Source: a plasmid
Strand: one strand, 5' to 3'
Sequence record: NZ_CP090789.1
Length of the DNA stretch: 64,000 nucleotides
The position numbers and the translations under genes were made by a program. Of this stretch, positions 21,367-40,123 are shown piece by piece. The notes under the pieces are model-generated. The model was not told where the DNA came from and made no database searches. It saw nothing but the letters and a program-made list of their open reading frames with translations. Numbering within the stretch: position 1 is the first letter of the stretch; every line of letters begins with the position of its first letter.

Positions 21367-21543
21367 TCAAACGCGGCCGCGGAACATTTGGCCGGCGCGG
21401 AAGGCTGCACGCATCGCGTGTTCGATATCGGAAATGCGAACCTCCTCCGGCGTGTACTCCGGAATTTCGCGGTCAATGATCGGATGGCCAAAGGTTGATT
21501 CGGCGATTGCGTTCAACACAGCGTCAACAAGGTAGCGTTCCAT
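21367..21543 (-). CDS. small hypothetical protein (58 aa) downstream of the methyltransferase
   Basis: Manually translated MERYLVDAVLNAIAESTFGHPIIDREIPEYTPEEVRISDIEHAMRAAFRAGQMFRGRV; high GC3; below the 60-aa ORF-track cutoff. Confidence 0.3.
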   Translation of the reverse strand: MERYLVDAVLNAIAESTFGHPIIDREIPEYTPEEVRISDIEHAMRAAFRAGQMFRGRV

Positions 21544-21591
21544 GGTATGTCCAGTTCGGTGGCCCGCGGCGCTTGGCGCCGCAGGCAGTTT

Positions 21592-22236
21592 TTAGGCAGC
21601 GATGGCGAGGCGGTCGATCTCTAGCCGGTCGCAAGCAGCGGCGTAGTAGGTCGGATCGAGCTCGATGCCGATGTAGTAGCGGCCGAGCTCGCGCGCGGCA
21701 ACGCATGTCGAGCCCGACCCAGCGAACGGATCAAGGACGACGTCGCCAGGGGCCGTGTACGTCTCGATGAGTCGCTTGAGGCACGGAACCGGCTTCTGCG
21801 TGGGATGGTGCCGATTGCCGGAATATTCCCAGCGCATCACGTCAGGCAGCGGCGTAGCCGGCACAGCCGGCTGGCCCTTCGCGAGCACGTACGCGGATTC
21901 GTGGCGGTACGCGACAAAGCGCGATTTCGACGCATAGGACTTCGCGAAAACGATGTGGCCGACGACGCGCAGGCCCGCGCGCTTCCACGCGTCGAAAAAG
22001 CGGTCCGTTTTCGTCCAGCCGTAGAAGCTCACGCAAAGCGTGTTCGGCTTCATGACGCGGTACACCTCCGCGAATGCCGGCGCCAGCCAGTCCGATTTCA
22101 CATCGTTTGCGATCGAGCGCCCGGAGCGATCGTGATAGTTGACGAGATAGGGCGGGTCAGTCAGGACGAAGTCGACCACGCCGTCCGGAATGGACGGCAA
22201 CACTTCCAGGCAGTCGCCGTTATAGAGAAAGCTCAT
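21592..22236 (-). CDS. orphan DNA methyltransferase (N4-C/N6-A family, DPPY motif)
   Basis: VLTDPPYLVNY catalytic motif and FAGSGSTCVAA SAM-binding motif (PF01555-type); no adjacent restriction endonuclease. Confidence 0.85.
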   Translation of the reverse strand: MSFLYNGDCLEVLPSIPDGVVDFVLTDPPYLVNYHDRSGRSIANDVKSDWLAPAFAEVYRVMKPNTLCVSFYGWTKTDRFFDAWKRAGLRVVGHIVFAKSYASKSRFVAYRHESAYVLAKGQPAVPATPLPDVMRWEYSGNRHHPTQKPVPCLKRLIETYTAPGDVVLDPFAGSGSTCVAARELGRYYIGIELDPTYYAAACDRLEIDRLAIAA

Positions 22237-22707
22237 GTATGCGCTCCACAGTTGGGGGGCGGATAGCGCGTTTCCGTGTGCGGCTCCGAAATGTCGCTAC
22301 CCGGCGCTTGCGAGCGCCGCGCAGGGGTTGCCGGTCAAGGGACCGTGGAATAACGGGGAGGCAGTCCGTAGGAGGGCACCGTTTATGCCGCGAAAGCCCT
22401 TGAAAGAGTGGGCGCGCGCCGGAGCGTGCGGGCCCGTTCTGGCCGGCGAAACCAGCGCGGCGATCGTTTGCGACGGGTAGCGACATCCATTTAGAACCCC
22501 GGGCGCTTTATCTCCTTTCGGGCGTGGTTAGAGCCACTAGCCGAGGCCTGGAGGGGGAGGTTCGGCGTGCGGTTACTCATGAGGGCGGGCCTCGGTTTAT
22601 GGGCCGCCCGATCTGGAGTGCGCCGCGCGCCCGGAAGGGGATAGGCTGCGGGCTGTGACCATCGTCGATGCTCAGGAACAGGCCCCGGCATGGCCGGGGC
22701 TTCGAAA

Positions 22708-24682: not shown

Positions 24683-24702
24683 TGTGCTCCAGGTTGGTTT
24701 TT

Positions 24703-25190
24703 GCTGACCGGGACCCAAGATTCTGAGTCCCCGCGTATTGGGTTCTGTCGAGTCGGCGTGCTGCGCTTCGCAGCTGCCGCCGGTCCCCTTAGTTCGTCGT
24801 CCCGCGAACGGACGAGCGCCGGCCGGCGCCGGGTCAAGGGATCACGCGCGGGGTGGGGCGGGAGGGAGCGCAGCGCACGACACGGCCTCGCGCGCCTTGA
24901 CGCGGCAAAGGCCGGCGCTACGGTCGCGGAACTAGGACGACGAGCTCAGGGGACGGGAAGGTCGGTAGCGGCCGCATGCCGATGAGGCAGAACGCCGCGC
25001 GCGGCGAGCGCGCTATCTGAGGCGCGAAGCGGCTCAGGTGGACATGGGGTGGCCAGCGCCGGGGCGTGCTGCGGGACGCAGCTCGGCCCCTAGAGCGTGG
25101 TGGGGTATCCGGGCCGCGGAGAAAGCGGCTCGCGTGGCAAAGCGATCACGTCGGTTTGGTGCGCGAGCCGGCGCGGCTCGGCTCGATCCG
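24703..25190. repeat. about 488-bp direct repeat copy 1 (5' leader of the DUF3560-MTase gene)
   Basis: About 95% identical to 27985-28473; ends about 20 nt before the start codon of the minus-strand gene. Confidence 0.85.
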
Positions 25191-25208
25191 GTTGCTCCGG
25201 GCCATGAG

Positions 25209-25232
25209 AAAAGGGGCTTTCGCCCCTTCCCT
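25209..25232 (-). terminator. rho-independent terminator (GGGGCGAAAGCCCCTTTTCT on the minus strand)
   Basis: 7-bp GC stem, 4-nt loop, T-run on the minus strand; immediately after the 36-aa ORF. Confidence 0.6.
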
Positions 25233-25342
25233 TACCGCAGCACCACGCACATGCGCCGTGGTGTCCACCAGACCAGAAGCGCGTATTCATTGCTGAAAAA
25301 CTCCGCGTTGTCGTGGTCGATGTAGATCACTGGATCGATCAT
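25232..25342 (-). CDS. small 36-aa ORF with strong RBS (candidate leader or small peptide)
   Basis: AAAGGAGATGACC-ATG; MIDPVIYIDHDNAEFFSNEYALLVWWTPRRMCVVLR; preceded by hairpin 25362-25383 and followed by terminator. Confidence 0.3.
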   Translation of the reverse strand: MIDPVIYIDHDNAEFFSNEYALLVWWTPRRMCVVLR

Positions 25343-25552
25343 GGTCATCTCCTTTAAATGTGGGACCGCGAACATGCGGTCCCATCTTTATTTATGCGTG
25401 CACGCCGAATCGGCGCAAAAAATCCGGGCCGCCGACAACTACCCGAACTCGACCGGCCGCGCCGGTGCTGCGCAAGCCATGCCTCGGCAGTTCTTGCCGC
25501 CGCTAAGGCGACCGGTCTGTCTGCCCACCGGGGCACGTGTCCTCTGCCTCCA

Positions 25553-27382
25553 TCACGAGTCGAAGGCAAACTCGAAGGTGGTTTGCGCCCCAGCCGTCGT
25601 AGCCTTGTGCGCCCAGGCATGCCGCGCGTTGTCCGGCAGGTCACCAAAGCGCACCCCTTGCTGGACCAGCTGCTCGGCGTTGTGCCCGAGATTTAGGCCG
25701 AGCCGGTCCTTGAAGTCGGTGCGTCGCGCCACCTCATCGTGCTTGAGCTGCTGCTTGTGGGAAAGCGTCAGCGCGCCGTAGCTCAGATACCACCGATAGC
25801 CGGCCGTGATTCCGCCGGGATGAAAACCGCGATCGTGCATGTCGGCCAGTCGATCGGCCTCGAATTCCAGGATCATCTCGGCCGACTCGACATCGACGTC
25901 GAATCGCGTGCCCGTCCGAACCTCCCATGTGCTCTTGCCGTCACCGAGATCCATGACTGTCGGCGCGCAGGGCGAGCGCTCGGTCAATGCTTCGAACAGC
26001 GGGTCACGAAAGCCCGTCCACTGATCCGCTGTTTCGTCCCATTCAGTGCCGACCTTCAGGAAAAGTGGTTCCGGCAACGGTGCCGGCGCGACCGGCGTGA
26101 TTTCCGGAACGGAATAGCTCATGCCACGCTCGCAGATGTCGCGGTAGTCTGCCCAGATCGCGAAGGGCGCCGCGAGTCCCTGCAGGGACTGCATCGCGTC
26201 GACGGCGATCATCATCGGTAACGGTAACGTCTGGAATTTCGGGCGCGTCCCGGCGCGCCGCGCGCGGATCCTCTCCTCTCGATCGATTGTCAGCATGTAC
26301 CGGACGAGCTCGCGGACGGTCGCGGCGCCGAACGTATCGGGCTCGAGGCAGATGTACCCTTCTCGGATCGTGCGACCGACCCAGTTGCGGCGCGACCAGT
26401 CGTAGCGGATTGCGCGGATGAATCGATTCAGCTGCTGCAGACCGCGCGCATAGGCGTAACGATCTCCGTCGAATCGGATCATCTCGGCAAGCGACCGATC
26501 ATCGGCTTGCTGGCAGGTCCAGCAGCCGGTGCGTGCATCGCAATGTCCGCGGCGCACGCGCTTGCCGGCGGACGCCTCCTCGAAGGTGAGATCCGACACG
26601 ATCGCGCAGCTGCTGTTACCGGCATGCGCGTAGATCCGCTTCGTCTCATCGAAATCCGTGTAGCTGTCGCGCAGACCGGACGATACTTCGCCAATGAACT
26701 CCCAGACGTCTTCGGTCGACCAGCCCGCAATCGGGCAGAGCGTGAGCTCCCCGTCACTGTTGCGGACCGGCGTATCCGCGCGATCGCCGCGCGCGGTCAT
26801 CTTCGCTTTGCGCCGCTCGCTCTCTTCGAACCGTGTGCCGAGCAATACGACCGGCTCGGCATAACCGGCCTTCCGTGCCTCGCGGTACAGCTGGTTGCGG
26901 CCGACGCGGCTCGGCTCGATTTTCAACGAAACCGAGCAGTCGGAGTTCGTGCCAGCGTAGCTTGGCAGGGCGCGGCCGGTCAGCACAGCCAGCTGCCAAG
27001 ACGTCGCAAGCGACGGCGCCACAACCTGCACGCGGACGTCGAAGCCGTGCTCGCGACCGAACGCCCCCATCTTCTCGAGCTCACGCAGTGCATGCTCGAC
27101 CATTTCAGGCGACTCCACCAGGGTGTCAGCCGTGATCACGCAGACGAGCGGCCGGCCGCCGGCGGCCGCGTGCAGGCGGGCGGCATCAAGCGCGAGACTG
27201 GTCACGACTCCGCTATCCTTGCCCGCGCTGAATTGGCAAATCACCATTCGGTTGTCGGTGAAAAGCGCCCCCAGCGCTTCGATCGCGCGCGCAACGCGCT
27301 GGTCGAGAGAGGGGCGCATTTCGGCCTGCAGGAACATTTCGACCGTTTCCATCGAATTCAGCCGAAATACCAGACGTTGCAC
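25553..27382 (-). CDS. PP-loop PAPS-reductase-family protein (DndC/IbrA/BrxP-like) with Cys cluster
   Basis: ICQFSAGKDSGVV PP-loop ATP-pyrophosphatase motif; CDARTGCWTCQ Cys cluster; 609 aa; alternative start ATG 27352. Confidence 0.75.
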   Translation of the reverse strand: MQRLVFRLNSMETVEMFLQAEMRPSLDQRVARAIEALGALFTDNRMVICQFSAGKDSGVVTSLALDAARLHAAAGGRPLVCVITADTLVESPEMVEHALRELEKMGAFGREHGFDVRVQVVAPSLATSWQLAVLTGRALPSYAGTNSDCSVSLKIEPSRVGRNQLYREARKAGYAEPVVLLGTRFEESERRKAKMTARGDRADTPVRNSDGELTLCPIAGWSTEDVWEFIGEVSSGLRDSYTDFDETKRIYAHAGNSSCAIVSDLTFEEASAGKRVRRGHCDARTGCWTCQQADDRSLAEMIRFDGDRYAYARGLQQLNRFIRAIRYDWSRRNWVGRTIREGYICLEPDTFGAATVRELVRYMLTIDREERIRARRAGTRPKFQTLPLPMMIAVDAMQSLQGLAAPFAIWADYRDICERGMSYSVPEITPVAPAPLPEPLFLKVGTEWDETADQWTGFRDPLFEALTERSPCAPTVMDLGDGKSTWEVRTGTRFDVDVESAEMILEFEADRLADMHDRGFHPGGITAGYRWYLSYGALTLSHKQQLKHDEVARRTDFKDRLGLNLGHNAEQLVQQGVRFGDLPDNARHAWAHKATTAGAQTTFEFAFDS

Positions 27383-27948
27383 TGATGGACGGCATCACGC
27401 GTAAAGCTCTCGCGGAGTCCTGGTTCGAGCTCGCTGTTCGCAAGAATCCGTTCGAACAAGTTGAGGATACGGACGCATGCGTCGCCGACGTGCGAATTGG
27501 AATCGCACTCCAAGATCTCGGTGTCGAGCTCGGTCCACAGCGCCGCGTTGATCTTCTGCCGCACAGTGCCTTTCGTCGTCGGCTCGTCTCGTTCCTCTTC
27601 TGGTGGGACCGGGAAACCCGCAGCCGCGAGCTCGCGACGCGCCTGGTCGTCCCATCGAGTCGGCGCTTCGGCGTCGCATCGGAATGCATACCGGATCGCG
27701 GCCTCGCATTCCGGTGTTCCTTCCTCGGTCTCAACCTTCACGGCAACCTCAAAGTAGTTGCCGAAGCCATGCGTGCAGGCCCGGACAATGAATCGTGCTC
27801 CCTGCGGTGGCTCACCCAGCGCCCGCGTAATCACTTTGATGAAGGCGCGACACTCCGCGCGGCTGCGATCTTGATAGTTCTCGTTTCCCAGCTGAACGCA
27901 CGGCTCGTTGGCCGGCGAAGGCCCACAATCAATAATCAGTTTGTACAT
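27358..27948 (-). CDS. hypothetical Cys-containing protein (196 aa), first gene of the operon with the DndC-like gene
   Basis: RBS GAGAGGAAGAGC before ATG; overlaps or abuts the downstream PAPS-reductase-like gene. Confidence 0.55.
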   Translation of the reverse strand: MYKLIIDCGPSPANEPCVQLGNENYQDRSRAECRAFIKVITRALGEPPQGARFIVRACTHGFGNYFEVAVKVETEEGTPECEAAIRYAFRCDAEAPTRWDDQARRELAAAGFPVPPEEERDEPTTKGTVRQKINAALWTELDTEILECDSNSHVGDACVRILNLFERILANSELEPGLRESFTRDAVHQCNVWYFG

Positions 27949-27984
27949 GCTCTTCCTCTCTGGCGTACCGCGCGACGCGGTGTT

Positions 27985-28473
27985 AGCTGCCCGGGCTCCA
28001 AGATTCGGAGTCCCGACGTATTGGGTTCTGTTGAGTCGGCGTGCTGCGCTTCGCAGCTGCCGCCGGTCCCCTTAGTTCGTCGTCCCGCGAACGGACCAGC
28101 GCCGGCCGGCGCCGGGTCAAGGGAACACGCGCGGGGTGGGGCGGGAGGGAGCGCAGCGCACGACACGGCCCCGCGCGCCTTGACGCGGCAAAGGCCGGCG
28201 CTACGGTCGCGGAACTAGGACGACGAGCTCAGGGGACGAGAAGGTCGGTAGCGGCCGCATGCCGATGAGGCAGAACGCCGCGCGCGGCGAGCGCGCTATC
28301 TGAGGCGCGGAGCGGCTCAGGTGGACATGGGGTGGCCAGCGCCGGGGCGGGCTGCGGAACGCAGCGCGGCCCCTAGAGCGTGGTGGGACATCCGGGCCGC
28401 GGAGAAAGCGGCTCGCGTGGCAAATCGATTACGTCGGTTTGGTGCGCGAGCCGTCGCGGTCCGGCTGGATCCA
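27985..28473. repeat. about 488-bp direct repeat copy 2 (5' leader of the 196-aa/DndC-like operon)
   Basis: About 95% identical to 24703-25190; begins about 37 nt upstream of the start codon. Confidence 0.85.
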
Positions 28474-28555
28474 GCTGCGAAAAGAAACTCGCCCCGGTTT
28501 CAGTGCCTAGCTATTTGAGTAAGCGAACCTGATCTGATAGCTTCTTACTCGAGAA

Positions 28556-29002
28556 TTGACCTTCGGCAAATACAAGGGCACGGAAGCTCGAAAACTTCTG
28601 TTCGACGATCCAGCCTACGTCCGCTGGCTTCTAGGAGAATCCGGCGCCTCGGGAGGCATGCTGGCAGCGCAGAAGGAGTTCACGCGACTCATCGCGGCAC
28701 TCGATAAGAAACCGTTTGCCGGCGACTGCGCCGGCGGCTGCAAACAGCCAGCGACCAGGGCGAGTGCGTATGCAAACAGCCCGACACTCTTCTCGTGGTG
28801 CGACGATTGCGATCCGTATTCGAAGGGGGCGCTGGCGGGCAAGTTGCGCATCGTCAGAACGTATGCGGACGCAGAGCGCCACGTCAATTTGACCGCCGAA
28901 GGCCATAGGGCCACGCTCAAAGCAATCATCCGCGAACTGGCAATGGAAAAAGGCATGGCGAAGCGGTTTACGGCATCGGCCCTTGCGGCATTCCTTCCAT
29001 GA
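28556..29002 (+). CDS. hypothetical protein with N-terminal FGKYKG...Y.RWLL motif (DUF3820-like)
   Basis: TTG start; MTFGKYKGTEARKLLFDDPAYVRWLL resembles the 'putative quorum-sensing-regulated virulence factor' family N-terminus (memory-based). Confidence 0.35.
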   Translation: MTFGKYKGTEARKLLFDDPAYVRWLLGESGASGGMLAAQKEFTRLIAALDKKPFAGDCAGGCKQPATRASAYANSPTLFSWCDDCDPYSKGALAGKLRIVRTYADAERHVNLTAEGHRATLKAIIRELAMEKGMAKRFTASALAAFLP

Positions 29003-29390: not shown

Positions 29391-29528
29391 CCTTTCCCTG
29401 TTTTCCGGTATCCGTGCGCTTTAGCGGCGGTTGTCGCCTTCGATGATCAGAAGCCTCGCGTTTTCCTTCCAAATTGCATTAACGGCCTCAGCGACTGCTT
29501 CTGACAAAATAATAGTACCGCTGCGGTA

Positions 29529-29831
29529 CTATGTCAAAGCTTTTATCAGTTGCTCAACAATCTGGGGAGCAAGCGTCACGCCGCGGGCGCTCAACTCTGC
29601 CGGTAGTACGGTGCGCATCATGTGACGGCGCACTGCCAAGGGGATACGCTCCAGTGCATAACCGGCTTCTGCCATTTTGGCGGGCCAATTATGTCGGTAT
29701 GCCGTGCCGCACGCAGCATTGATCTCGTCAAGGGTTTGCTTGAGCGGTTTGCCAGCGGCCGCCTCAATTTCCAGCCAGCGCTCGAAGAGGCCTTTAGAGA
29801 GTTTATCTAGTACCATAGCGGTACTGTATAC
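29529..29831 (-). CDS. hypothetical protein (about 100 aa) flanked by AGTACC-N5-GGTACT palindromes
   Basis: ORF with plausible composition; palindromes at 29509-29525 and 29806-29822. Confidence 0.35.
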   Translation of the reverse strand, partial: VYSTAMVLDKLSKGLFERWLEIEAAAGKPLKQTLDEINAACGTAYRHNWPAKMAEAGYALERIPLAVRRHMMRTVLPAELSARGVTLAPQIVEQLIKALT

Positions 29832-29958
29832 CATACGCGCCGTCAAATAGTCTCCTCGAAGATTCGGGACAGAATGGCGCGGCCCAGAAAAGCAACCATC
29901 GGATAATTCGGCGCCGCGCCGATCCGGTACCCTTCCACCGTATCGCAATATCTCGGCG

Positions 29959-30291
29959 ATGATCGTGCTCACTGAACTACAAAACCTACAGGCTCAACTT
30001 CGCGAATTGAATGCTCGGCTCGCGGACGTGAAGAACGACGAAAGGCAGGCGTATTTAGCCCGAGTCCAGGAACACGTTGCCCTCTACGGCATTACCGAAG
30101 ATGAACTGCTCTGCGCAGCTGGCTTCCGGAAAGCGCGCAGATCGCGGGCGCAAGCGAAGTACTACGACCCCTCGTCGGGTAAGCAATGGTCTGGATTCGG
30201 CCCGCGACCGAAATGGCTGGAAGGCAAGAATCTCGACGACTACCTGATTGAGCGTGCTGCGAAACCGTGGTGGCCCGGAGAAGACGCCTGA
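29959..30291 (+). CDS. hns: H-NS/MvaT-like nucleoid-associated protein
   Basis: N-terminal coiled-coil; C-terminal YYDPSSGKQWSGFGPRPKWL matching the H-NS DNA-binding motif (TWSGRGRxPxW). Confidence 0.7.
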   Translation: MIVLTELQNLQAQLRELNARLADVKNDERQAYLARVQEHVALYGITEDELLCAAGFRKARRSRAQAKYYDPSSGKQWSGFGPRPKWLEGKNLDDYLIERAAKPWWPGEDA

Positions 30292-30421
30292 CGACGCGCG
30301 CAAGTGAATTTCGCACCGATAGAGTGCTCCACGGTCGGGGCTTACCTGACGACAGCGATCGCCACCGGCAACCCGATACTTGCGTTACCCTGTTTCGGTA
30401 CGGTTGCCCTGGGAGTCGGCG

Positions 30422-31333
30422 ATGTGCTATTCGGCAAAGATCCAAACCAACTATCGTGAGTACGCGCGACGTTACGGTGCCGACATGGACATCGAGACAT
30501 TCCGCCATCTGTTCTTCGCGCGCGCGGCCGGAAGCGACATCAGAATTCCGAAGGCGGTCGACGCGGCGCTCGTAGGTGTCGACGAAGAAATCTCGGCGGC
30601 GATCGCTGCGTATCGAAGCCAGCGAACACGGAAGCTGGAGACCGATCTGTTCGAGCAGCGAGCGCGCCTCGCCGCGGCCGAGAAGAAGCTCGCCGTGAAG
30701 ACCACGAAGAAGGCGACCGAGGACGTCCGGATCGCCACGGACAAGATCGATGCGGCAACGCGCGGGCTCGACGATCTTCGCCGGCAGGACCTGCAGGAGC
30801 GTGATTCGCGGATCTTCCCCGGCTGGTATGCGCCCGTGCTGATCGAGCTCGAAGGCAAACGCCTAGTCGTGCCGATGCGGTATCGGTGCCGCATACCGGG
30901 CTGGACCGAGGCGGACGAAAAACAGAAGCCGGCAACCTATAATGCCCGCTCGGATTCGCTCGCCACGGCCTGGCGCAAGGTCTTCGGCTTCACGCATGGG
31001 CTCCTGCTCGTCGACGCTTTCTTCGAAAACGTGCGGCGCGACGGCCAGAACGTCGTGCTTCGCTTCGACCCGACGCCCCCGCAACACATGCAAGTCGCCT
31101 GCCTGTGGACCCGCACCGAGATCCCTGGCGCCGACGATTTGTGGTCGTTCGCGGCGATTACCGACGACCCACCGCCGGAAGTGGCGGCAGCGGGCCACGA
31201 CCGATGTATCGTCCCCATTAAATCCTCGAATGTTGACGCGTGGCTCGCACCACATCCAAGCCGGCGCGCGCAGCTGCGCGAGATCCTGGCCGACCGCGAG
31301 CGGCCCTACTACGAGCACCAGCTCGCAGCGTAA
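30422..31333 (+). CDS. SOS response-associated peptidase (SRAP/YedK/HMCES family)
   Basis: Starts MC (Cys2); conserved blocks YNARSDSL...WRKVF...HGLLLVDAFFE, ACLW, AITDDPPPEVAAAGHDRCIVPI...VDAWL; RBS GGAGTCGGCG. Confidence 0.7.
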   Translation: MCYSAKIQTNYREYARRYGADMDIETFRHLFFARAAGSDIRIPKAVDAALVGVDEEISAAIAAYRSQRTRKLETDLFEQRARLAAAEKKLAVKTTKKATEDVRIATDKIDAATRGLDDLRRQDLQERDSRIFPGWYAPVLIELEGKRLVVPMRYRCRIPGWTEADEKQKPATYNARSDSLATAWRKVFGFTHGLLLVDAFFENVRRDGQNVVLRFDPTPPQHMQVACLWTRTEIPGADDLWSFAAITDDPPPEVAAAGHDRCIVPIKSSNVDAWLAPHPSRRAQLREILADRERPYYEHQLAA

Positions 31334-31370
31334 ACGCGGGGGTTGGTGGGGCGGTTATCTCTGTCATATA

Positions 31371-31386
31371 CTGTACAAACATACAG
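31371..31386 (+). promoter_or_regulatory. LexA SOS box CTGT-N8-ACAG
   Basis: CTGTACAAACATACAG 21 nt upstream of the imuA ATG, embedded in an AT-rich -10-like region. Confidence 0.6.
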
Positions 31387-31406
31387 TATTTTGCGTAACC
31401 GACCCC

Positions 31407-32123
31407 ATGCACCCCGCCCTCGCCCATCCTGAAGTCATCCACCCGGCCCTCTGGCGCGCCAGTCAGCTGGCGCGCTCGAGCGTGCGCGGCGTCGACACGG
31501 GCCATCCGGAACTGACGGCCGAACTGCCCGGCGGCGGCTGGCCGGCCGGCGCGCTGATCGAGCTGCTCGCGCCGCAGCCGGGCATCGGCGAGCTTCGGCT
31601 GCTGGCGCCGGTGCTCGCGCGCGCGGCCGGCAAGCCGGTCGTGCTGATCCAGCCGCCGCATGCACTGCAACCGCTGGCGCTCGCGTACTGGGGCATCGAC
31701 CCGTCCGGGTTCGTGACGCTGCCGGCGCCGCGAACGGCCGACGCGCTGTGGGCCGCCGAACAGGCGCTGCGTGCCAGCACGTGCGCTGCCGTGCTGCTCT
31801 GGCAGCCGCATGTCCGTGCGGACGCATTGCGGCGACTCAACCTGGCCGCGCAGAGCGGCCAGGCGCTGTTCTACCTCTTCCGGCCGGCGGCCGCCGCGCG
31901 CGATGCGTCGCCGGCGCCGCTGCGGCTCGCGCTGGCGCCGAAGCGTGACGGCATCGATGTCACGTTCGTGAAGCGCCGCGGGCCTGCACGCGATGCGCCG
32001 CTGTTCGTTCCCTTGTCACCCTCGCCGATTTTGTTGAACCGCCATGCAAGTCTGGATCGGCGTGCATCTGCCGCACCTCAACCTCGAAGTGTTCCGGCCG
32101 CGATCGCCGGCGCCGTCGCCTGA
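31407..32123 (+). CDS. imuA: ImuA (SulA/RecA-fold) mutagenesis protein
   Basis: LWRASQLARS...VDTGHPELTAELPGGGWPAGALIELL...GELRLLAPVLAR...ALWAAEQALRASTCAAVLLW typical ImuA blocks. Confidence 0.7.
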   Translation: MHPALAHPEVIHPALWRASQLARSSVRGVDTGHPELTAELPGGGWPAGALIELLAPQPGIGELRLLAPVLARAAGKPVVLIQPPHALQPLALAYWGIDPSGFVTLPAPRTADALWAAEQALRASTCAAVLLWQPHVRADALRRLNLAAQSGQALFYLFRPAAAARDASPAPLRLALAPKRDGIDVTFVKRRGPARDAPLFVPLSPSPILLNRHASLDRRASAAPQPRSVPAAIAGAVA

Positions 32124-33522
32124 CGATGCGCGCGGGCTCGTCGTGCTCGAGGGCGGCCGCGTCGTGGCGCTCGATCGCGCCGCGCGTGCGCTCGGCGTGG
32201 TCGCCGGCATGCGCCGCGGTGGCGTGCTCTCTCTCGCACCGGACGCGCAGATCCGCGAGCGTGACGCCGCGCGCGAGCGCGAGCTCGTGCTCGGGGTTGC
32301 TTATGCGCTCCTGCAGTTCACACCGAGCGTCGTCGACGCCGAGGAAGCCGTGGTTGTGCTCGACGTGACCGCGAGCCTGCGCCTGTTCCACGGCATCCGC
32401 GCGCTGCGCCAGCGTGTGCGCGATGTCGTCGCGTCGTTCGGCGTCACCGCGGCGATATCCGTCGCGTCCTCGGGTCCGGCCGCGTGGATGGTCGCCCGCG
32501 GCCTGCGCGGCGGCCTCGCGCTGTCCGCGCGATCGCTGCGCCGCGCGCTCGCGCGCGTGCCTCTCGTCGTTGCGCCGGACGCCCGGCGCTACGCGAACTG
32601 GTTCGAGGATCTCGGCTGCGAAACGCTCGCCGATCTGCAGCGCTTGCCGCGCGCCGGGTTGAAGAAGCGATGCGGCACGCAACTGCTCGACTGGCTCGAC
32701 CAGGTCGCCGGCACCGCGCCGGCCGCCTACGACTGGCTCGAAATGCCGCCGTCGTTTGACACGCGCGTCGAACTGATGGACCGCGTCGAGCACGCCGAGG
32801 CGCTGCTGTTCGTCGCGCGCCGGCTGATCCTGCAGCTGACCGGCTGGCTCACCGCTAAGCAGCTGGACGTCGCCGCGTTTGCACTCCTGCTCGAGCACGA
32901 GCGCGGGCGGGACGCGATCGCGCCGACCGAGATCGAAATCGCGTTGGGCGCCCCTACCCGCTTCGAGGAGCACCTCACCCGGCTCGTCAAGGAGCGGCTC
33001 GGCCACGTCGAGCTCGCCGGGCCCGTGATTGCCGTGCGCCTAGTCGCCCACAGCGTGCAGGAAGCTGCCGCGCCGAGCGACTCCCTGTTTCCCGAGCCCG
33101 GTGGCACGCCGCAGGATCACGCACGGCTGCTGGAACTGCTGACGGCGCGGCTCGGCTCCGAGAACGTACTCGTCGCAGCTCCCATGGCCGACTACCGTCC
33201 CGAGCCGGCCGCCCGATGGGTGCCGATGCGTGACGCGCCGAAGCCGTCGCCGCTGCCGTCGGACCTGCCGCGTCCGGCCTGGCTGCTTGGCAGGCCTGTG
33301 CCGTTGCTCACACGCGAGCATCGCCCGTTTTACGGCACGCCGCTGCGCATGGTGTCGCCTGGCGAGCGCATTGAAGGTGGCTGGCAGGATGGGCAGACCG
33401 TGACGCGCGACTACTTCGTCGCCGAGGACGACAACGGCATCTGCTACTGGATCTACAAGGAGCGGCCGACGGCCAGCGACGAAAGCGACGCGCGCTTCTT
33501 CCTGCACGGCCTGTTCGGCTGA
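32044..33522 (+). CDS. imuB: ImuB (Y-family polymerase-like) mutagenesis protein
   Basis: N-terminus MQVWIGVHLPHLNLEVF typical of ImuB; followed by dnaE2. Confidence 0.8.
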   Translation: MQVWIGVHLPHLNLEVFRPRSPAPSPDDARGLVVLEGGRVVALDRAARALGVVAGMRRGGVLSLAPDAQIRERDAARERELVLGVAYALLQFTPSVVDAEEAVVVLDVTASLRLFHGIRALRQRVRDVVASFGVTAAISVASSGPAAWMVARGLRGGLALSARSLRRALARVPLVVAPDARRYANWFEDLGCETLADLQRLPRAGLKKRCGTQLLDWLDQVAGTAPAAYDWLEMPPSFDTRVELMDRVEHAEALLFVARRLILQLTGWLTAKQLDVAAFALLLEHERGRDAIAPTEIEIALGAPTRFEEHLTRLVKERLGHVELAGPVIAVRLVAHSVQEAAAPSDSLFPEPGGTPQDHARLLELLTARLGSENVLVAAPMADYRPEPAARWVPMRDAPKPSPLPSDLPRPAWLLGRPVPLLTREHRPFYGTPLRMVSPGERIEGGWQDGQTVTRDYFVAEDDNGICYWIYKERPTASDESDARFFLHGLFG

Positions 33523-33528
33523 TCCGGC

Positions 33529-36500
33529 ATGGACGCCGGCAGCTTCGGCGCCCTGCCCGCGTACGCGGAACTTCAGGTCGCCTCCGATTTTTCGTTCCTG
33601 CAGGGCGCGTCACGCGCGGAGGAATACGTCGCGCGCGCGGCGCAGCTCGGCTACAGCGCGATCGCGATCACCGACGAGTGCTCGCTCGCCGGCGTCGTGC
33701 GCGCGCACGTCGAAGCGAAGGCAGCGAACATGCCGCTGATCGTCGGCTCGCACTTCCGGCTGACGGCCGCGGACGGCGCGCCCGCGCTCGCCTTCACTGC
33801 GCTGGCGATGAATCGCGACGGTTACGGCAACCTCTGCGAATTCATTTCGCTCGGTCGCATGCGCGGCAAGAAAGGCACGTACCGGCTGGCGCCACTCGAT
33901 CTCGAACACCCGGAAGCGCCGTACACGCACCTGCGCGGCCTGCCCGACTGCGTCGCGATCCTGTCGCCCGACTTCCCAGCCAACGAGCAACGCCTTGACG
34001 CGCAGGTCGAATGGTTCGCGCGCGTGTTCGGCAATCGCGCATGGGTCGCGCTGACGCTGCACGCACGCGCGATGGACGACATCCACCGCGGCGTGGTCGA
34101 GCGCGTCGCCGCGCGGCACGGCGTGCCCGTGGTGGCCACCAGCTGGCCCCTCATGCACGTGCGATCGCGCAAACCGCTGCAGGACGTGCTGACGGGGATC
34201 CGGGTCGGCCGGCCGGTATCGGAGTGCGGGTACGAGCTCGCGCCGAACGCGGAGCGTCACCTGCGGTCGCGTCTGCGGCTCGCCAACCTCTATCCCGCCG
34301 GCGCGCTCGAGGAAACCGTACGCGTCGCGCGGCGTTGCACGTTTTCGCTCGACGACCTGAAGTACGAGTATCCGGATGAACTGGTACCGGCCGGCACCGA
34401 TCCGGCGACGTACCTGCGCGAGCAGACCTACATCGGCGCGCGCCGGCGCTTTCCGGCCGGCATCCCGATCGACGTCCAGGCGCAGATCGAACACGAGCTG
34501 CAGCTGATCGCCGACCTGAAATACGAGGCGTATTTCCTGACCGTCTACGACATCGTGCAATTTGCGCGCGAGCAAGGCATCTTGTGCCAGGGACGCGGCT
34601 CGGCTGCGAACTCGTCCGTTTGCTACTGCCTCGGCGTGACCGAGGTCGACCCGTCGCGGCAATCGATGCTGTTCGAACGGTTCATCAGCAAGGAGCGCAA
34701 CGAGCCGCCGGACATCGACGTCGATTTCGAGCATCAGCGTCGCGAAGAGGTCATGCAGTACATCTACCGCAAGTACGGCCGCGATCGCGCAGCGCTCACG
34801 GCCGCCGTCACGACATACCGGCCACGCAGCGCACTACGCGAAGCCGGCAAGGCGCTCGGCGTGGATCCGGCGATCGTCGATCGCGTCGCGAAGCAGCACC
34901 ACTGGTTCGATTCGCGCGCGGATCTGCTGCAGCGTTTTTCCGAGGCTGGCCTCGACCCCGACGCGCCGCTGAATCAGCAGTGGGCCGCATTTGCCGCGCA
35001 GCTGCTCGGCTATCCACGGCACCTGTCGCAGCATTCGGGCGGCTTCGTGATCAGCCGCGGCAAGCTCACGCGGCTCGTACCGGTTGAAAACGCAGCGATG
35101 GAGGATCGCTCGATCATCCAGTGGGACAAGGACGACATCGAGGCGCTCGGGATTCTGAAGATCGACGTCCTGGCCCTCGGGATGCTGTCGATGGTACGCC
35201 GCGCGCTCGACATGATCTCGGAGAAACGCGGCGAGACATTCGAGCTGCAGGACATTCCAGCCGAGGACAAGGCGACCTACGACATGCTGTGCGATGGCGA
35301 CAGCATGGGCGTGTTCCAGGTGGAATCGCGCGCGCAGATGTCGATGCTGCCGCGCCTGCGGCCGCAGTGCTTCTACGACTTGGTGATCGAAGTCGCGATC
35401 GTGCGGCCGGGCCCGGTGCAAGGCGGGATGGTGCATCCGTTTCTGCGCCGGCGCCAGGGGCTGGAGCCCGTCACGTTTCCGTCGGAAGGCATGGAGAAGG
35501 CGCTGGCTCGCACGCTCGGCGTGCCGATCTTCCAGGAGCAGGTGATGCAGGTCGCGATGCTGGCGGCCGGCTTCTCCGCCGGCGAGGCCGACCAGCTGCG
35601 CCGCGCGATGGCGGCATGGAAGCGCAAGGGGGGCCTCGAGCCGTACCACGAACGCCTGGTGAGCGGCATGCTCGAGCGCGGCTACGATCGCGAGTTCGCG
35701 GAATCCATCTTCGCGCAGATCAAGGGCTTCGGCGAGTACGGCTTTCCGGAGAGCCACGCGGCCAGCTTCGCGCTGCTCGTCTACGCGAGCGCCTGGCTGC
35801 GCCGACACGAGCCGGCCGTGTTCCTGGCCGCGCTGCTCAACAGCCAGCCGATGGGCTTTTACACGCCGTCGCAGCTCCTGCAGGACGCGCGGCGTCGCGG
35901 CGTTGAGGTGCTGCCCGTCGACGTCAACGTGAGCACATGGGATTCGGCGATCGAAGGCCCGACAACGTCGGCGCCCGTGCGTCTCGGCTTCTCGCTATTG
36001 CGCGGCATGCGCGAGGACGTCGCCGGCCGCATCGAGCTCGCACGCGCTGCGCGGTCATTCGTCGACGTCGCGGATCTCGCGCGCCGCGCGCGGCTTGATC
36101 GGCACGACCTGCAGGTGCTCGCGCGCGCGAACGCCCTCCGCTCACTCGCCGGCGGCAATCGACGCGCCGCGCTCTGGCTGGCCGCCGCCGCGGTCCCCGA
36201 TCGGGATCTGCTGCGCGGCACCGAGCGCGACGACGCGGTGCCGGCACTGCCGCAAGCATCGGAAGGCGCGGAAATCGTGACGGACTATCGTTCGATGGGC
36301 TTCACGCTCGGCCGGCATCCGCTGGCGCTGCTGCGCGAACGCCTGGCGCTCGATCGCCTGCAGTCGGCCGAACAGCTGCAGACGTTGCGCAGTGGCCAGC
36401 TCGCGCGCGCGTGCGGACTGGTTACGGTACGGCAGCGGCCGGGCACGGCGAACGGCGTACTGTTCATGACGCTCGAGGACGAGACCGGCCAGGTGAATGT

Positions 36501-36678
36501 GATCCTCTGGCCCGGCCTGCTGGAAAAGTTTCGGAAGGAAGCGCTCGGCGCCGCGCTGCTTGCCGTCTATGGTGTATGGCAGGCCGAAGGGAAGGTGCGG
36601 CATCTGATTGCGAGCAAGCTCGTCGACAGAACTGAACTACTCGGTGCACTGCCGACGACGTCGAGGGAGTTTTGTTAA
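33529..36678 (+). CDS. dnaE2: error-prone DNA polymerase DnaE2 (ImuC)
   Basis: PHP domain N-terminus ([15 protein letters not shown]), Pol III alpha core motifs, 1049 aa. Confidence 0.9.
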
Positions 36679-37253
36679 ATTTGCGCCGGCGCGGCGGAGG
36701 CCCGAATTGCTGCCAGTTCTTCGTCACCAAGCGCGGGGAGTTCAACGGCCGTCACGATCTCTGGGAGAGCAGCCATGATCGCTGTCCATTCGTTCACCGC
36801 GCTTTCGTGATATGCCCTCCTTTGCTCATGGCCATTGCCCTCGTTCGTCGCTTCCGCGATGCAATGTGCGCGCACCTCGGCGTGACCGATCGCTTGCCAT
36901 ACTGCCTGGCGCGCTCCTAGGGCGAGATAGAGGCAGTAATCGTCCATCCATGCCTTGCAATCATCGATCACAGATTGATTGTCGCGAGCCGACAGAAGCC
37001 CCTTTACCTTCTTGAATGCTTGTTGATGTGCATCCATGCGCTTGTCTGCAACAAGCGTCCGAAGCGAATGACGCTGTTTGGATACCTCAATTATTTCGGC
37101 AAATTGATGTTTGATTTCCTCCTGCCGTCTGGTGATCTCGGCAATGTCCTCCTTTGTCGCCAGATTTTCCCCCTTCTTACGGAAGTATCCTGGCAGAAAT
37201 TCCTGTGCGAGCAGAATGATCCCTGCACCAGCGAGCACCCCAATCAAGCTCAT
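36675..37253 (-). CDS. hypothetical membrane-anchored protein (192 aa) in a lower-GC segment
   Basis: N-terminal TM helix; last gene of the PAAR cassette; could be a second immunity protein. Confidence 0.4.
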   Translation of the reverse strand: MSLIGVLAGAGIILLAQEFLPGYFRKKGENLATKEDIAEITRRQEEIKHQFAEIIEVSKQRHSLRTLVADKRMDAHQQAFKKVKGLLSARDNQSVIDDCKAWMDDYCLYLALGARQAVWQAIGHAEVRAHCIAEATNEGNGHEQRRAYHESAVNEWTAIMAALPEIVTAVELPALGDEELAAIRASAAPAQI

Positions 37254-37268
37254 TGTCTTTCCTCGAGT

Positions 37269-38363
37269 TTAAAGACGTTGATCGTCAAGCGTTGATTCGG
37301 ACGTGAGGCGCGGCATCTTCAACAACTTCGCCTTGTAGCTAAACACGTCGCTCTCATCGATGTCGAATCGGCGCAGCCAATCATCGCTTTCGGCAGTCGT
37401 ATCAAAGTATGGTGCGGCGGCCCCCATCAATCCGCGCTGCAAGCGCCACACAGTCTTCGCTCGAATAGCCTTCAACGCATTGTTGAGGACCACGTAGTTC
37501 GCAGGTGCGACGGGCGGCCCCTTCCCTGACTCATCGGCTGCGCCACCGGGCTCGGGTTCGGGGCCGGCCTGAATCACGACCCCACCGTTCATGTCGTACA
37601 GCGCGAACCAGTCCGGCGGCAGTTCGCTTCGTAGCGCTGCGATCCCGCCCGCCTGCTCCAACAGCGACTTGTCCAGGCACGTGAGCCAAGAAACCGTTTT
37701 CAGTTTCGATCGCAGGTGCGTCGCGTTGAGCAGCGGATTGCCGACGTCGAGCGCCAGGTAGCGCCGGGCCAACCAGTATTCCGTCGGTGTGTTGGCCTCA
37801 GCTTCCGTCAGGCTCAGATTCACCGCGAATCCGGCATAGCCGTTGTAGGCGTTCAGCCGTTTCGCGAAGTCGACGAACAGCTGCTGGAACGCGCGAGGAT
37901 GGGCGACCAGAAATGGCACAGGCACCGAGAAGGTCAGTGCGCTGGCGCCCCCTTCGGCCATCGCTTCCTCGTACTCCAGGATCCCGAACACGCGGAACTC
38001 CCACAGCCCTGCATCCTCAGCCTTTTCGCCGGAGGACAGGTAGGCCGTAACGCCCGCGTCGCCGCGCGCGCGGAACGCCTTCGGGTCCACCTGCCCATCC
38101 TTCAGCTGCACGGGCATCCGGCCGTCCTGCGTGAGCCAGCGAAGGCGCGGTCCCGCGTAGGCCGCATACGCCGCGAAGCAGTTTGCAATCTCGCCCTGCA
38201 CGGCTTCCTGATACGCGTTCGGAAAGAACAGCGCCGCGCGCACGACCATCGCTGCGCCGACGTAGTCGTGACGCTGCTTCGGCAGAAGCATGCCCCCTTT
38301 CAATAGGGCGTCAGTTTGGGCATTCTTCGCCCACTCGATCAGTGCTTGTTCGTCCATGGTCAT
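37269..38363 (-). CDS. putative immunity protein (364 aa) of the PAAR-effector cassette
   Basis: Start ATG overlaps the upstream gene stop by 1 nt (TGATG); function inferred from position only. Confidence 0.4.
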   Translation of the reverse strand: MTMDEQALIEWAKNAQTDALLKGGMLLPKQRHDYVGAAMVVRAALFFPNAYQEAVQGEIANCFAAYAAYAGPRLRWLTQDGRMPVQLKDGQVDPKAFRARGDAGVTAYLSSGEKAEDAGLWEFRVFGILEYEEAMAEGGASALTFSVPVPFLVAHPRAFQQLFVDFAKRLNAYNGYAGFAVNLSLTEAEANTPTEYWLARRYLALDVGNPLLNATHLRSKLKTVSWLTCLDKSLLEQAGGIAALRSELPPDWFALYDMNGGVVIQAGPEPEPGGAADESGKGPPVAPANYVVLNNALKAIRAKTVWRLQRGLMGAAAPYFDTTAESDDWLRRFDIDESDVFSYKAKLLKMPRLTSESTLDDQRL

Positions 38364-39127
38364 CAGAATAGCGGAATCGGGCTCGGCGATGGGGCAGGCG
38401 CAGCTCCGTCGGGCGGCCGTGGGCCGAAGACGCTGCGTGAACGTTTCGTCGCGCCCTCGAGCTCGTCGAACGGGCTCCACGGGGCCGGCTTCGACGCGCC
38501 GTCTGTGGCATCTCTCGGCGCGGGCCCGAGTACCGGAAATTCGCTGGTCTTCTCCTGCTTTTTCCCGTCGTCGTCAGGGCACCCGCAATCCTCCGGCGTC
38601 AAAAGGACGGCAGCTGCATTGGGGCCGGCGATAAGTTCGTCTTGCCTTTGATGCCGCGTTGAATACGAATCGCCCTTGAACTTCATTTCGACGACGGCGT
38701 CCAGATTGTCCTGGGTCGGCTCCTTCGCCGGATCCTTGACGATCACCACATCGGGGATCCGCACGTTGCCGACGCCGCGCTCGTACTTTCCGACCCAGTT
38801 GTCCTCGATCCATTGAGGGAGCCAACCGTGCGTCTTGTTCGGCGTGCGCGGGCTCATGATCGGTGTGGGTGGACGAACCGTCATGAGGTACTTCACCTCG
38901 GGTTTGTAGATGCTGGTCTTAAAGTCCGGGTCGTCCTGCTTGAGCTTTGAGGCGACGCAGATCTGTCGAAGATCTTTGCCGTCCACCGACTGCGGCGGAT
39001 TGTTCTTGCACGAGCACATCAGGCTGCACAGCTTCGCCTGATCTTTGGGCCGCAGCTTCGAAGTCAGGTAGACCCGACTGGTTTCGCCGTCGCCGGGCGC
39101 CGTTCCTCCGATCGACCACTTGCTCAC
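38363..39127 (-). CDS. putative effector with PD-(D/E)xK-like nuclease motifs
   Basis: GTG start overlapping the PAAR stop (GTGA); IPDVVIVKD...VVEMKF resembles a restriction-endonuclease-fold core. Confidence 0.4.
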   Translation of the reverse strand: MSKWSIGGTAPGDGETSRVYLTSKLRPKDQAKLCSLMCSCKNNPPQSVDGKDLRQICVASKLKQDDPDFKTSIYKPEVKYLMTVRPPTPIMSPRTPNKTHGWLPQWIEDNWVGKYERGVGNVRIPDVVIVKDPAKEPTQDNLDAVVEMKFKGDSYSTRHQRQDELIAGPNAAAVLLTPEDCGCPDDDGKKQEKTSEFPVLGPAPRDATDGASKPAPWSPFDELEGATKRSRSVFGPRPPDGAAPAPSPSPIPLF

Positions 39128-39654
39128 GCTTCGGCACTCCCGTCGCCGTGAAACGTAATCGACGCGGGCTCGGCAGACTCGTGCCACTGCGTGAAGCCTT
39201 GGGCGTCGGTCTGGCCGGAGATCATGGAGCCATCCGGCGCCTGGAACGAGTACGGGTGGTTGGGAACGGGGCTTCCCGTTTCGCTATTCAGGACTTGGAA
39301 CCGGCCGCGGTACCTATCGGTCGCGCTCGGATCCTGTTGCGGGACAACGTTCTTTCCGCCGCCAATGCCGCCCGCAGCACCGGACACCTGCTCGACATGC
39401 GCAGAGCCTTGCGATGCGATCAGCGAGGCGCCGCACGCCGTCTTGTCCCCTTCGGTCGCCACCGGGCGGCCGCCGAAGGTCATGCTTCTCACCTTCACGT
39501 CGACGATCGGATAGACGCCACCGCATTTCGGACATGCCACCATGTCGCCGAGTAGTGCGACGGGTTTGCCGAACATCATGTTCGTTGATGTGCAGGCGAG
39601 TACACGTCCACCATGCGACGTCGTATCGCCTTCGCGAATAAACGCGTAGGTCAT
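39124..39654 (-). CDS. PAAR-domain protein (T6SS spike tip) with C-terminal extension
   Basis: REGDTTSHGGRVLACTSTNMMFGKPVALLGDMVACPKCGG matches the PAAR motif pattern; RBS GAGGG. Confidence 0.75.
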   Translation of the reverse strand: MTYAFIREGDTTSHGGRVLACTSTNMMFGKPVALLGDMVACPKCGGVYPIVDVKVRSMTFGGRPVATEGDKTACGASLIASQGSAHVEQVSGAAGGIGGGKNVVPQQDPSATDRYRGRFQVLNSETGSPVPNHPYSFQAPDGSMISGQTDAQGFTQWHESAEPASITFHGDGSAEA

Positions 39655-40123
39655 AGCCAGCCCTCGGATTGTTATGTCGGACGAATTTAGCACCAATTCG
39701 CTACCGCACATCACCCTCGCCGGCTCGATCAACCGTCAAAGTTTGTTAGCTGCGCTCGAAAATTCGGTGCGGCGTCAAAACAATGAGAGCTGGCGTGGGT
39801 CGCGCTCTGGCACCGCCGGCGGACGCGTACCGCCCCCAACTTTGCGCATACGCACGATCAGCGGCACGACTTTGTTGCTCACCGTGAGGGTGACCTCGAA
39901 TGCAGTCAAATTTGGCGTATCGAACGTCGGCATCCGCTTCCAGATCGGTCGCCATTCTAGTTTTCGCATACGCGAGTGCAGCTGCTCCTTGCTCGGTCCC
40001 GGGACAGATGCCGCGACGAATTGCGCGAGCGGCGCTGGTACCCGCTCGGGAGGAAACGACTCCGGAAGTCCGAATGAAACAAGTTCAAGCGTCGCTGCCA
40101 CGGTGCTCTCTCCCGATCGAAAG

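Follow-up and report, generated by a model that had tools for sequence, protein, structure and literature searches.

A long-form SRAP gene beside a LexA-boxed imuA-imuB-dnaE2 cassette on a plasmid of the Burkholderia cepacia complex type

Gene content of the module and its plasmid setting

A block of five genes on a plasmid (sequence record NZ_CP090789.1) was analysed, in which an hns-like gene and a gene for a protein of the SRAP family precede the error-prone polymerase cassette imuA-imuB-dnaE2. The window, that is, the whole stretch of DNA analysed, comprises 64,000 nt of this record, and the block under study occupies positions 29959-36678. An open reading frame (ORF) list combined with family scans gave five co-directional ORFs on the plus strand, with limits exactly as described in an earlier reading made from the letters alone (the sequence-only reading). 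The features of the block are as follows.

29959-30291, plus strand: hns-like gene, 110 amino acids (aa); PF00816 C-terminal domain, 38.7 bits against a cutoff of 25.6
30422-31333, plus strand: SRAP gene, long form, 303 aa; PF02586, 63.4 bits against a cutoff of 27.1
30440-30808, plus strand: span of the SRAP insertion, residues ~7-129, from an AlphaFold2 (AF2) model and alignment
30584-30781, plus strand: codons of the SRAP helical hairpin (residues 55-120), the core of the ~94-residue insertion
31343-31372, plus strand: putative sigma-70 promoter of imuA, as read from the sequence
31371-31386, no strand: LexA operator CTGTACAAACATACAG, with the extended palindrome TACTGTACAAACATACAGTA at 31369-31388
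31407-32123, plus strand: imuA, RecA/SulA-like accessory factor; NF033429 equivalog, 225.1 bits against a cutoff of 150
32044-33522, plus strand: imuB, Y-family-like; PF00817 IMS domain, 39.8 bits
33529-36678, plus strand: dnaE2 (imuC), error-prone Pol III alpha paralogue; NF004225 'error-prone DNA polymerase', 1518.9 bits against a cutoff of 939

The family scores lie above the curated cutoffs and bear out the identities first given to all five genes. In the dnaE2 product, PHP, DNA_pol3_alpha, finger, HHH_6 and OB domains were found, and the replicative DnaE model NF004226 scored 611, under its cutoff of 1002. The same-strand order imuA, imuB, dnaE2 is tight, with an imuA/imuB overlap of 80 nt and a gap of 6 nt between imuB and dnaE2. 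The Prokaryotic Genome Annotation Pipeline (PGAP) gives an identical layout, overlap included, in the related locus L001. ImuB is probably a non-catalytic subunit; read by eye only, its N-terminus has GVHLPHL where catalytic Y-family polymerases have DxDxF, and a phmmer search of ImuB against PDB sequences returned no relative to align. The protein also has a DSLF motif, which resembles a clamp-binding motif.

The plasmid location proposed in the sequence-only reading was confirmed. A MobA/MobL relaxase with an AAA_30 helicase is encoded at 14149-16971 on the minus strand, a TrwB-type type IV coupling protein at 8853-10442 and a Rep3 initiator at 53460-54680, while the window flanks are 78-91% identical to Burkholderia cepacia complex plasmids. 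Orphan DNA methyltransferases and an integrase are also coded in the window. The relaxase, coupling protein, initiator and flank homology together support plasmid-borne status and the view of the window as part of a conjugative plasmid of the Burkholderia cepacia complex type.

The LexA operator and the putative imuA promoter

A LexA box had been predicted between SRAP and imuA, and it was found to be the sole strong site in the 64 kb. It lies 38 nt past the stop codon of SRAP, with 20 nt separating it from the imuA ATG. The extended 20-mer matches 17 of the 20 positions of the E. coli LexA consensus. Alone, the bare CTGT-N8-ACAG pattern is weak evidence, since 0.41 occurrences are expected in a window of such composition and 2 are present. 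With a weight matrix built from 36 distinct boxes of related loci, the imuA site scored 37.8 bits and the next best site in the window 2.2 bits. In more than 40 distinct homologous loci of Burkholderia, Paraburkholderia and Caballeronia, a box stands 11-27 nt before the imuA start. The second CTGT-N8-ACAG occurrence, CTGTTCAGTTGAACAG at 47872-47887, scored 2.0 bits with this family matrix and was rejected as an operator, being a probable chance match.

Manual reading of the same interval gave a candidate promoter consisting of a -35 hexamer TTGGTG (31343-31348), an 18-nt spacer and a -10 hexamer TATACT (31367-31372). The operator overlaps the putative -10, and both hexamers are conserved in the homologues on Burkholderia cepacia complex plasmids. 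No promoter or terminator was called within the module by a consensus scan.

Upstream of hns and SRAP (29400-30430) the best weight-matrix score was -5.9 bits, and a hidden SOS box driving these two genes was rejected. Because the box is downstream of SRAP and no other LexA site lies upstream, SRAP is not visibly part of an SOS-controlled unit in this arrangement.

A close experimental precedent exists. In Cupriavidus taiwanensis, the imuA2B2C2 genes of plasmid pRalta form an operon behind CTGTN8ACAG, the beta/gamma-proteobacterial LexA motif, and are expressed in a LexA-dependent manner (Remigi et al. 2014, PMC4151985). The cassette causes transient hypermutagenesis in a new host and is phylogenetically closest to Burkholderia cassettes (PMC4151985). 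By analogy with pRalta, LexA would be expected to bind at imuA here and DNA damage to induce the gene. More broadly, imuA-imuB-dnaE2 belongs to the predicted SOS core of beta-proteobacteria, Burkholderia included, and additions to the SOS network tend to lie on small replicons and plasmids (Sanchez-Alberola et al. 2012, PMC3323433).

The 5' edge of the box is also the exact insertion point of a group II intron, whose ltrA lies on the other strand, in plasmid pBCJ2315 (L002, 6925-8912) and in a B. anthina plasmid (L084, 2891-4976); the equivalent window position is 31369/31370. The junctions in J2315 read ...TCTGTCATAT| and |ACTGTACAAACATACAG, and the right junction is identical in the B. anthina plasmid. 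The insertion separates the putative -10 from the operator. On the strand of the intron the 5' exon is the palindromic operator, which is reminiscent of introns that home behind stem-loops.

An SRAP protein with a long internal insertion

The SRAP start was placed at the ATG at 30422 on the grounds of a GGGAG ribosome-binding site 6 nt before it, the PGAP annotation of orthologues and the invariant MCYSA of homologues; the alternative is a TTG at 30380. The chosen start gives the protein a Met-Cys N-terminus, MCYSA. Many database entries for this SRAP are 253-265 aa long, and their alignments take in just 87% of the query. Their start sites may have been mis-annotated, with loss of the catalytic Cys2, or the proteins may be shorter at the C-terminus.

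The PF02586 match is limited to residues 120-292, corresponding to profile positions 24-197. Searching the PDB by phmmer with the single SRAP sequence found no chain, and a profile of 15 SRAP homologues reached 1zn6 alone, over residues 169-280. Since these PDB sequence searches failed, the catalytic alignment rests on hhalign and a fold search. The YedK reference sequence was confirmed against PDB chains (513 bits). Aligned with YedK by hhalign, the 15-sequence SRAP alignment paired INAR (Asn75 of YedK) with YNAR (Asn174), WFEW (Glu105) with FFEN (Glu202) and IHDRRP (His160) with GHDRCI (His259). Retention of the Cys2/Glu/His triad on a proper alignment had been set beforehand as the test of the SRAP assignment, and Cys2, Asn174, Glu202 and His259 are all kept. 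Among the 15 homologues (53-91% identity), M1-C2-Y3-S4-A5 and Glu202 are invariant, while Asn174 and His259 are conserved in at least 90%. A set of 20 diverse sequences at 38-53% identity has MCYSA in at least 90% and the same catalytic pattern, apart from evident frameshifted metagenomic entries.

The AF2 model (mean predicted local distance difference test score, pLDDT, 81; predicted template-modelling score, pTM, 0.79) has an SRAP core. Foldseek related it with probability 1.00 to 1zn6, to HMCES (6oeb) and to YedK (6nua), with target-normalised template-modelling (TM) scores of about 0.5-0.6.

In YedK, Cys2 forms a thiazolidine crosslink to abasic (AP) sites in single-stranded DNA, and Glu105 and His160 act in ring opening and reversal (PMC6821365, PMC9436759). 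By analogy, the plasmid protein would crosslink AP sites in single-stranded DNA through Cys2. An older proposal would give it a different activity. The family was named partly from DUF159 genes lying beside at least two of ImuB, ImuA and DnaE2, and an autopeptidase function was proposed for it (Aravind, Anand and Iyer 2013, PMC3765255). Proximity to ImuA-ImuB-DnaE2, to UmuDC and to DinB supplied the three SOS contexts behind the name (PMC3765255). On that proposal, SRAP would be an autoproteolytic or damage-sensing switch for polymerase activation and not a shield for AP sites. The gene neighbourhood and the Cys/Glu/His set, first read as a thiol autopeptidase (PMC3765255), speak for such a switch. 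However, in the YedK and HMCES work the same residues make and reverse the thiazolidine crosslink at AP sites (PMC6821365, PMC9436759), and the residues conserved in the plasmid SRAP are exactly the YedK crosslinking set. We regard the switch as very improbable.

The protein differs from YedK in length. From strand 1 (residues 6-9) to the strand RIFPGWYAPV (about 130-143) there are ~122 residues, compared with ~28 in YedK. With these ~94 extra residues after strand 1, the protein is larger than a compact single domain of ~220 residues. The insertion is a variant within the SRAP family and not grounds for exclusion from it. The sequence-only reading was thus right that the SRAP is atypical and has extra residues; what it called an N-terminal extension after Cys2 is an internal insertion after strand 1, and one found throughout a subfamily.

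In the AF2 model the insertion consists of three short helices and a long antiparallel hairpin made of helices 55-92 and 96-120. The hairpin spans about 65 residues with pLDDT values in the 90s. K93, T95, K96, A98, R103 and K108 do not vary among close homologues, and in the diverse set their conservation is at least 90%. Foldseek matches to the hairpin were limited to generic, non-significant coiled coils (GreA/B, the seryl-tRNA synthetase arm and the Topo I linker).

Distribution of long-form SRAP and its linkage to imuABC

A pattern scan using one genome per species found at least 581 loci with insert-bearing SRAP relatives. The subfamily ranges over Burkholderiaceae, Comamonadaceae and Xanthomonadales, and by tblastn 120 plasmids encode a long-form SRAP (Burkholderia 59, Paraburkholderia 19, Cupriavidus 11, Ralstonia 10, Xanthomonas 8, Pandoraea 5, others). 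The insert alone, searched against 1.84 billion cluster representatives, matched 384 clusters. It is near the N-terminus of the match in 142 of the 150 clusters listed, usually from residue 10-11, and among the 384 clusters it occurs neither as a free-standing domain nor in another host protein. Neither this insert-only search nor the fold matches of the hairpin explained the origin of the insert.

Gene order was tallied from 80 fetched genomic loci of long-form SRAP.

SRAP, then box, then imuABC (the arrangement of the window): 8 of 80 loci
Box, then imuA-imuB-dnaE2, then SRAP as last gene: 25 of 80 loci; gap 50-136 nt in most
Divergent, with the box between imuA and SRAP on the imuA side: 13 of 80 loci
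imu genes or remnants elsewhere in the flank: 6 of 80 loci
No imu gene in the available flank: 28 of 80 loci

Long-form SRAP is therefore linked to imuABC in 46 of the 80 sampled loci, in three gene orders. The persistence of the linkage through three rearrangements is good evidence of a functional tie between SRAP and imuABC. As some arrangements place SRAP behind the box, the gene would be under LexA control in many relatives, and 4 of the 28 loci without imu genes have a LexA box of their own about 55 nt upstream of SRAP. Judged by these comparisons, long-form SRAP is a large conserved subfamily with a predicted rigid helical arm, recurrently linked to imuABC. No description of the long form or its insertion was found in the literature searched, where this SRAP in Burkholderia and YedK together with imuA led to nothing beyond the 2013 neighbourhood paper and genome reports on other subjects; in the 2013 paper the terms 'insert', 'coiled' and 'plasmid' have 0 occurrences (PMC3765255).

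The linkage raises the possibility that long-form SRAP is a physical partner of the mutasome, its hairpin docking to ImuA, to ImuB or to the beta clamp, with a captured AP site thereby handed to, or withheld from, DnaE2. Linkage across genera in three orders, including the last position of the operon, is what such a partnership would leave, and the confinement of the insert to this subfamily, the well-predicted rigid hairpin and its conserved basic tip residues point the same way. A 2026 survey, moreover, lists SRAP-like proteins as putative subunits binding Y-family polymerases (PolY) (PMC12926913). Nevertheless, the pRalta cassette with 500 bp of upstream DNA sufficed to bring back the mutator phenotype (PMC4151985), and SRAP is therefore dispensable for it; the long form occurs without adjacent imu genes in the 28 loci, on several Xanthomonas plasmids and elsewhere; and the fold matches of the hairpin are generic. 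A physical partnership is possible, but we hold it to be rather unlikely.

A bolder form of the same idea, which we consider speculative and unlikely, is that the insertion marks an SRAP subfamily dedicated to the mutasome, in which the hairpin docks AP-site capture to ImuA-ImuB-DnaE2 or the beta clamp, possibly during plasmid establishment. If so, lesion shielding and error-prone bypass would form a single hand-off pathway, and on conjugative plasmids the kit could act on the incoming single strand in a new host.

In most of the distant long-form SRAPs the catalytic FYENV motif is directly followed by a further insertion of about 12-14 residues (consensus RHxxExRxLxxGExxxN), at alignment columns ~232-246. 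The form on Burkholderia cepacia complex plasmids is without it.

Occurrence on related plasmids, selection and history

Positions 29900-36700 were compared by megablast with 72,556 plasmids. Of the 375 records with a match, 38 span 80% or more of the query. The top matches are plasmids of B. anthina, B. cenocepacia, B. vietnamiensis, B. ambifaria, B. pseudomallei and B. multivorans at 85-93% identity (about 91% for the block); they include pBCJ2315 of the reference strain J2315, and some come from cystic fibrosis isolates. PGAP names the genes in these matches H-NS, SRAP family, ImuA, Y-family polymerase and error-prone polymerase.

The ratio of nonsynonymous to synonymous substitution rates (dN/dS) was computed against six related loci. 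Values were 0.12-0.14 for hns, 0.10-0.25 for SRAP, about 0.10-0.14 for imuA and about 0.05-0.08 for dnaE2; with all five genes between 0.05 and 0.25, all are under purifying selection. Synonymous divergence (dS) is 0.4-0.5 for hns and SRAP compared with 0.2-0.3 for imuA, imuB and dnaE2 in the same pairs, and in the comparison with L024 it is 1.5 for SRAP against 0.46-0.50 for imuABC. This gap, about twofold, indicates that the hns-SRAP half and the imuABC half differ in history, with a junction near the operator, and suggests recombination there and a mosaic origin of the module.

The sister plasmids also bear on whether the module is hitch-hiking cargo, with little function in its current host and heading for decay. 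Interruptions occur in them, by the group II intron at the operator (pBCJ2315 and B. anthina) and by an IS110 insertion between imuA and imuB (B. vietnamiensis), and truncated module remnants are present in L003, L007 and L009. In the window, however, all five frames are intact, with low dN/dS against several relatives, and the operator and promoter region is conserved. Decaying cargo was accordingly rejected for this window, and we judge it highly improbable. The IS110 family element lies at 3733-5039 in L083 and is found in B. vietnamiensis records NZ_CP020393, NZ_CP009629 and NZ_CP083657; the remnants are of imuA or imuB.

The hns gene as a variable neighbour

The hns-like protein matches Burkholderia H-NS Bv3F (chain 2L92) with E = 6.5e-4. 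Its DNA-binding loop (window 30160-30230, residues ~68-90) reads WSGFGPRPKWL and is conserved in the orthologues next to SRAP, in contrast to the WSGRGRxPxW of Bv3F and of most Burkholderia paralogues encoded in the fetched loci. The plasmid protein thus lacks the canonical Q/RGR minor-groove motif.

Of the 25 best plasmid matches, 11 reach across hns; the remaining 14 begin at query position 504-522, a few nt (12) before the SRAP start codon. Among the sampled genomic loci with SRAP before imuA, an orthologous hns is directly upstream in only three (L003, L005 and L006). As hns is missing from most such matches, the conserved unit is SRAP-operator-imuABC, with hns a facultative neighbour. A looser association of hns with the module may exist. 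In B. aenigmatica (L081), a long-form SRAP at 52% identity has an hns orthologue at 80% identity in front of it, and H-NS-like genes recur 1-6 kb from SRAP in several Paraburkholderia and Caballeronia loci. A second H-NS paralogue lies 2.4 kb past dnaE2 in L001, and many such paralogues are present on Burkholderia plasmids and islands.

In the window, hns and SRAP are 130 nt apart on the same strand. Since no terminator-like site is predicted between them, a joint hns-SRAP transcript is likely.

The sequence-only reading had gone further and taken the H-NS protein to be the module's own silencer. In that scheme the five genes would be one unit in which plasmid H-NS silences SRAP-imuABC on top of LexA, keeping the mutator quiet in an adapted host. 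The position of hns directly before SRAP, its orthologue before a divergent SRAP in B. aenigmatica and the H-NS-like genes near SRAP in Paraburkholderia and Caballeronia agree with it, as does a locally AT-rich stretch of ~44 bp around the LexA box; Remigi et al. likewise raised the possibility that the native host keeps mutagenesis by plasmid imuABC silent (PMC4151985). The wider pattern does not. Besides the absence of hns from 14 of the 25 closest plasmids and from most sampled genomic loci with SRAP before imuA, the cassette is the most GC-rich part of the window, at 66-70% compared with roughly 57-64% in most flanks. H-NS proteins prefer AT-rich DNA, so the cassette is not a typical H-NS target. 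The loop has GFGPRP in place of the canonical RGR, and the abundance of H-NS paralogues on Burkholderia plasmids and islands means that the proximity of hns may reflect island content. The comparisons leave a dedicated silencer role unsupported, and we judge the one-unit scheme quite improbable.

Interpretation of the locus

The most satisfactory account is that the locus is a standard LexA-repressed imuA-imuB-dnaE2 operon on a Burkholderia cepacia complex conjugative plasmid, with SRAP as a linked accessory and hns as a variable neighbour, and we consider this account probable. Host LexA would bind the palindrome over the -10 and repress the imuA promoter. Upon DNA damage, RecA-stimulated self-cleavage of LexA would derepress imuA-imuB-dnaE2, and the ImuA-ImuB-DnaE2 complex would carry out error-prone gap filling and lesion bypass. 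SRAP, after removal of its initiator Met, would become covalently linked to AP sites in single-stranded DNA through a thiazolidine formed by Cys2 with the help of Asn174, Glu202 and His259. The crosslink would shield these sites from cleavage and so spare strand breakage at gaps that the mutasome fills later. The helical hairpin would most likely be a docking arm of the subfamily or one that contacts DNA junctions. SRAP is probably transcribed from the hns side and would not be SOS-gated here, unlike its relatives in other genera, and the H-NS protein would act as a plasmid nucleoid-associated protein instead of a dedicated silencer of the cassette. The gene identities, the conserved operator and catalytic residues, the fold, the linkage across loci and the purifying selection are shown here; we infer that LexA binds, that damage induces the operon, that SRAP crosslinks AP sites, what the hairpin does and which genes are transcribed together.

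Several observations weigh against this account. LexA binding, induction and SRAP crosslinking on this plasmid rest on inference. SRAP is not behind the LexA box, which weakens co-regulation in the window arrangement, and no imu gene is present in the available flanks of 28 of the 80 long-form loci. The Pfam SRAP model misses the N-terminus and AF2 confidence is below 50 for residues 1-4; for both reasons the placement of Cys2 in the active site rests on conservation and not on geometry. The proposed -35 is weak, matching the consensus at 3 of 6 positions, which is why it went unscored by the scanner and the imuA promoter was missed. Finally, several sister plasmids have the cassette split by IS110 or by a group II intron, so that it is not always intact.

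The module as a whole is ordinary, already annotated and, by plasmid comparison, widespread on Burkholderia cepacia complex plasmids. A plasmid-borne, LexA-gated imuABC is already known to raise mutation supply after transfer, so the whole module adds little. That a mobile SOS mutasome with SRAP is noteworthy in itself, as first suggested, is anticipated by published work (PMC3765255, PMC4151985). The analysis corrects the idea of a dedicated silencer and puts SRAP outside the operator in the window arrangement. Only the long-form SRAP subfamily and its helical arm had no counterpart in the literature searched. Knowledge of SRAP proteins in bacteria comes almost entirely from YedK, and the long form offers a testable handle linking AP-site crosslinking to translesion synthesis.

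Genes flanking the module

Directly past dnaE2 lies a type VI secretion system (T6SS) effector/immunity set on the minus strand (36675-39732). It comprises a PAAR protein (39124-39732), a weak VRR-NUC nuclease match (38363-39187) and a TsiV immunity protein (37269-38480). A 192-aa ORF of no assigned family at 36675-37253, also on the minus strand, overlaps the dnaE2 stop codon by 4 nt with its 3' end.

On the other side, the stretch from the relaxase to the module (14149-29000) contains a DNA methylase (21592-22236), a DUF3560-methyltransferase fusion (22708-24837) and a PAPS-reductase family protein (25553-27382). Plasmid leading regions have similar content, and the hns-SRAP-imuABC block may therefore enter a recipient early.

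Comparison with known systems

The nearest functional counterpart, pRalta imuA2B2C2, is likewise a plasmid-borne imuA-imuB-dnaE2 behind CTGTN8ACAG. Long-form SRAP is present as well on a pRalta-like plasmid, about 1.2 kb away from dnaE2. There, however, SRAP is convergent with the cassette and lies by ligD and a zinc-finger gene, whereas here it is directly upstream on the same strand. Adjacent hns is lacking in pRalta, a 0.5-Mb symbiotic plasmid as opposed to the Burkholderia cepacia complex plasmid described here. In the pRalta-like record NZ_CP016951.1 (L085, 4024-14435) the order is ligD, DUF2188, SRAP, zinc-finger protein, hypothetical protein and the convergent dnaE2-imuB-imuA, and this damage-tolerance cluster has a LexA box upstream of imuA only.

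Closest in sequence are the sister plasmids of the Burkholderia cepacia complex (among them NZ_CP126319.1, NZ_CP015038.1 and pBCJ2315, NC_011003.1), which share the order SRAP, LexA box, imuA, imuB, dnaE2 at 85-93% identity. They differ in that hns is present only in some, some are interrupted by the intron or an insertion sequence (IS), and the backbone is different. For the hns gene, comparable plasmid-encoded H-NS homologues are Sfh of R27 and Pmr of pCAR1, which act as 'stealth' factors across the plasmid or genome. The likeness is a small H-NS family protein on a large conjugative plasmid; nothing connects the H-NS protein here with the cassette, and the canonical motif is not kept in its DNA-binding loop.

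The chromosomal cassettes of Caulobacter, Pseudomonas putida and Mycobacterium (PMC3323433, PMC3765255) have the same gene order and a LexA operator, and they act in damage-induced mutagenesis. The present cassette differs in being plasmid-borne, in having SRAP attached and in containing no lexA2, which the P. putida type has. The SRAP neighbourhoods described in 2013 (PMC3765255) are alike in placing SRAP beside at least two of imuA, imuB and dnaE2. The SRAP protein itself shares with E. coli YedK and human HMCES the fold and the catalytic set, Cys2/Asn75/Glu105/His160 corresponding to Cys2/Asn174/Glu202/His259 here. Identity to these proteins is only about 19-22%, and the plasmid protein is set apart from both by its hairpin-bearing insertion.

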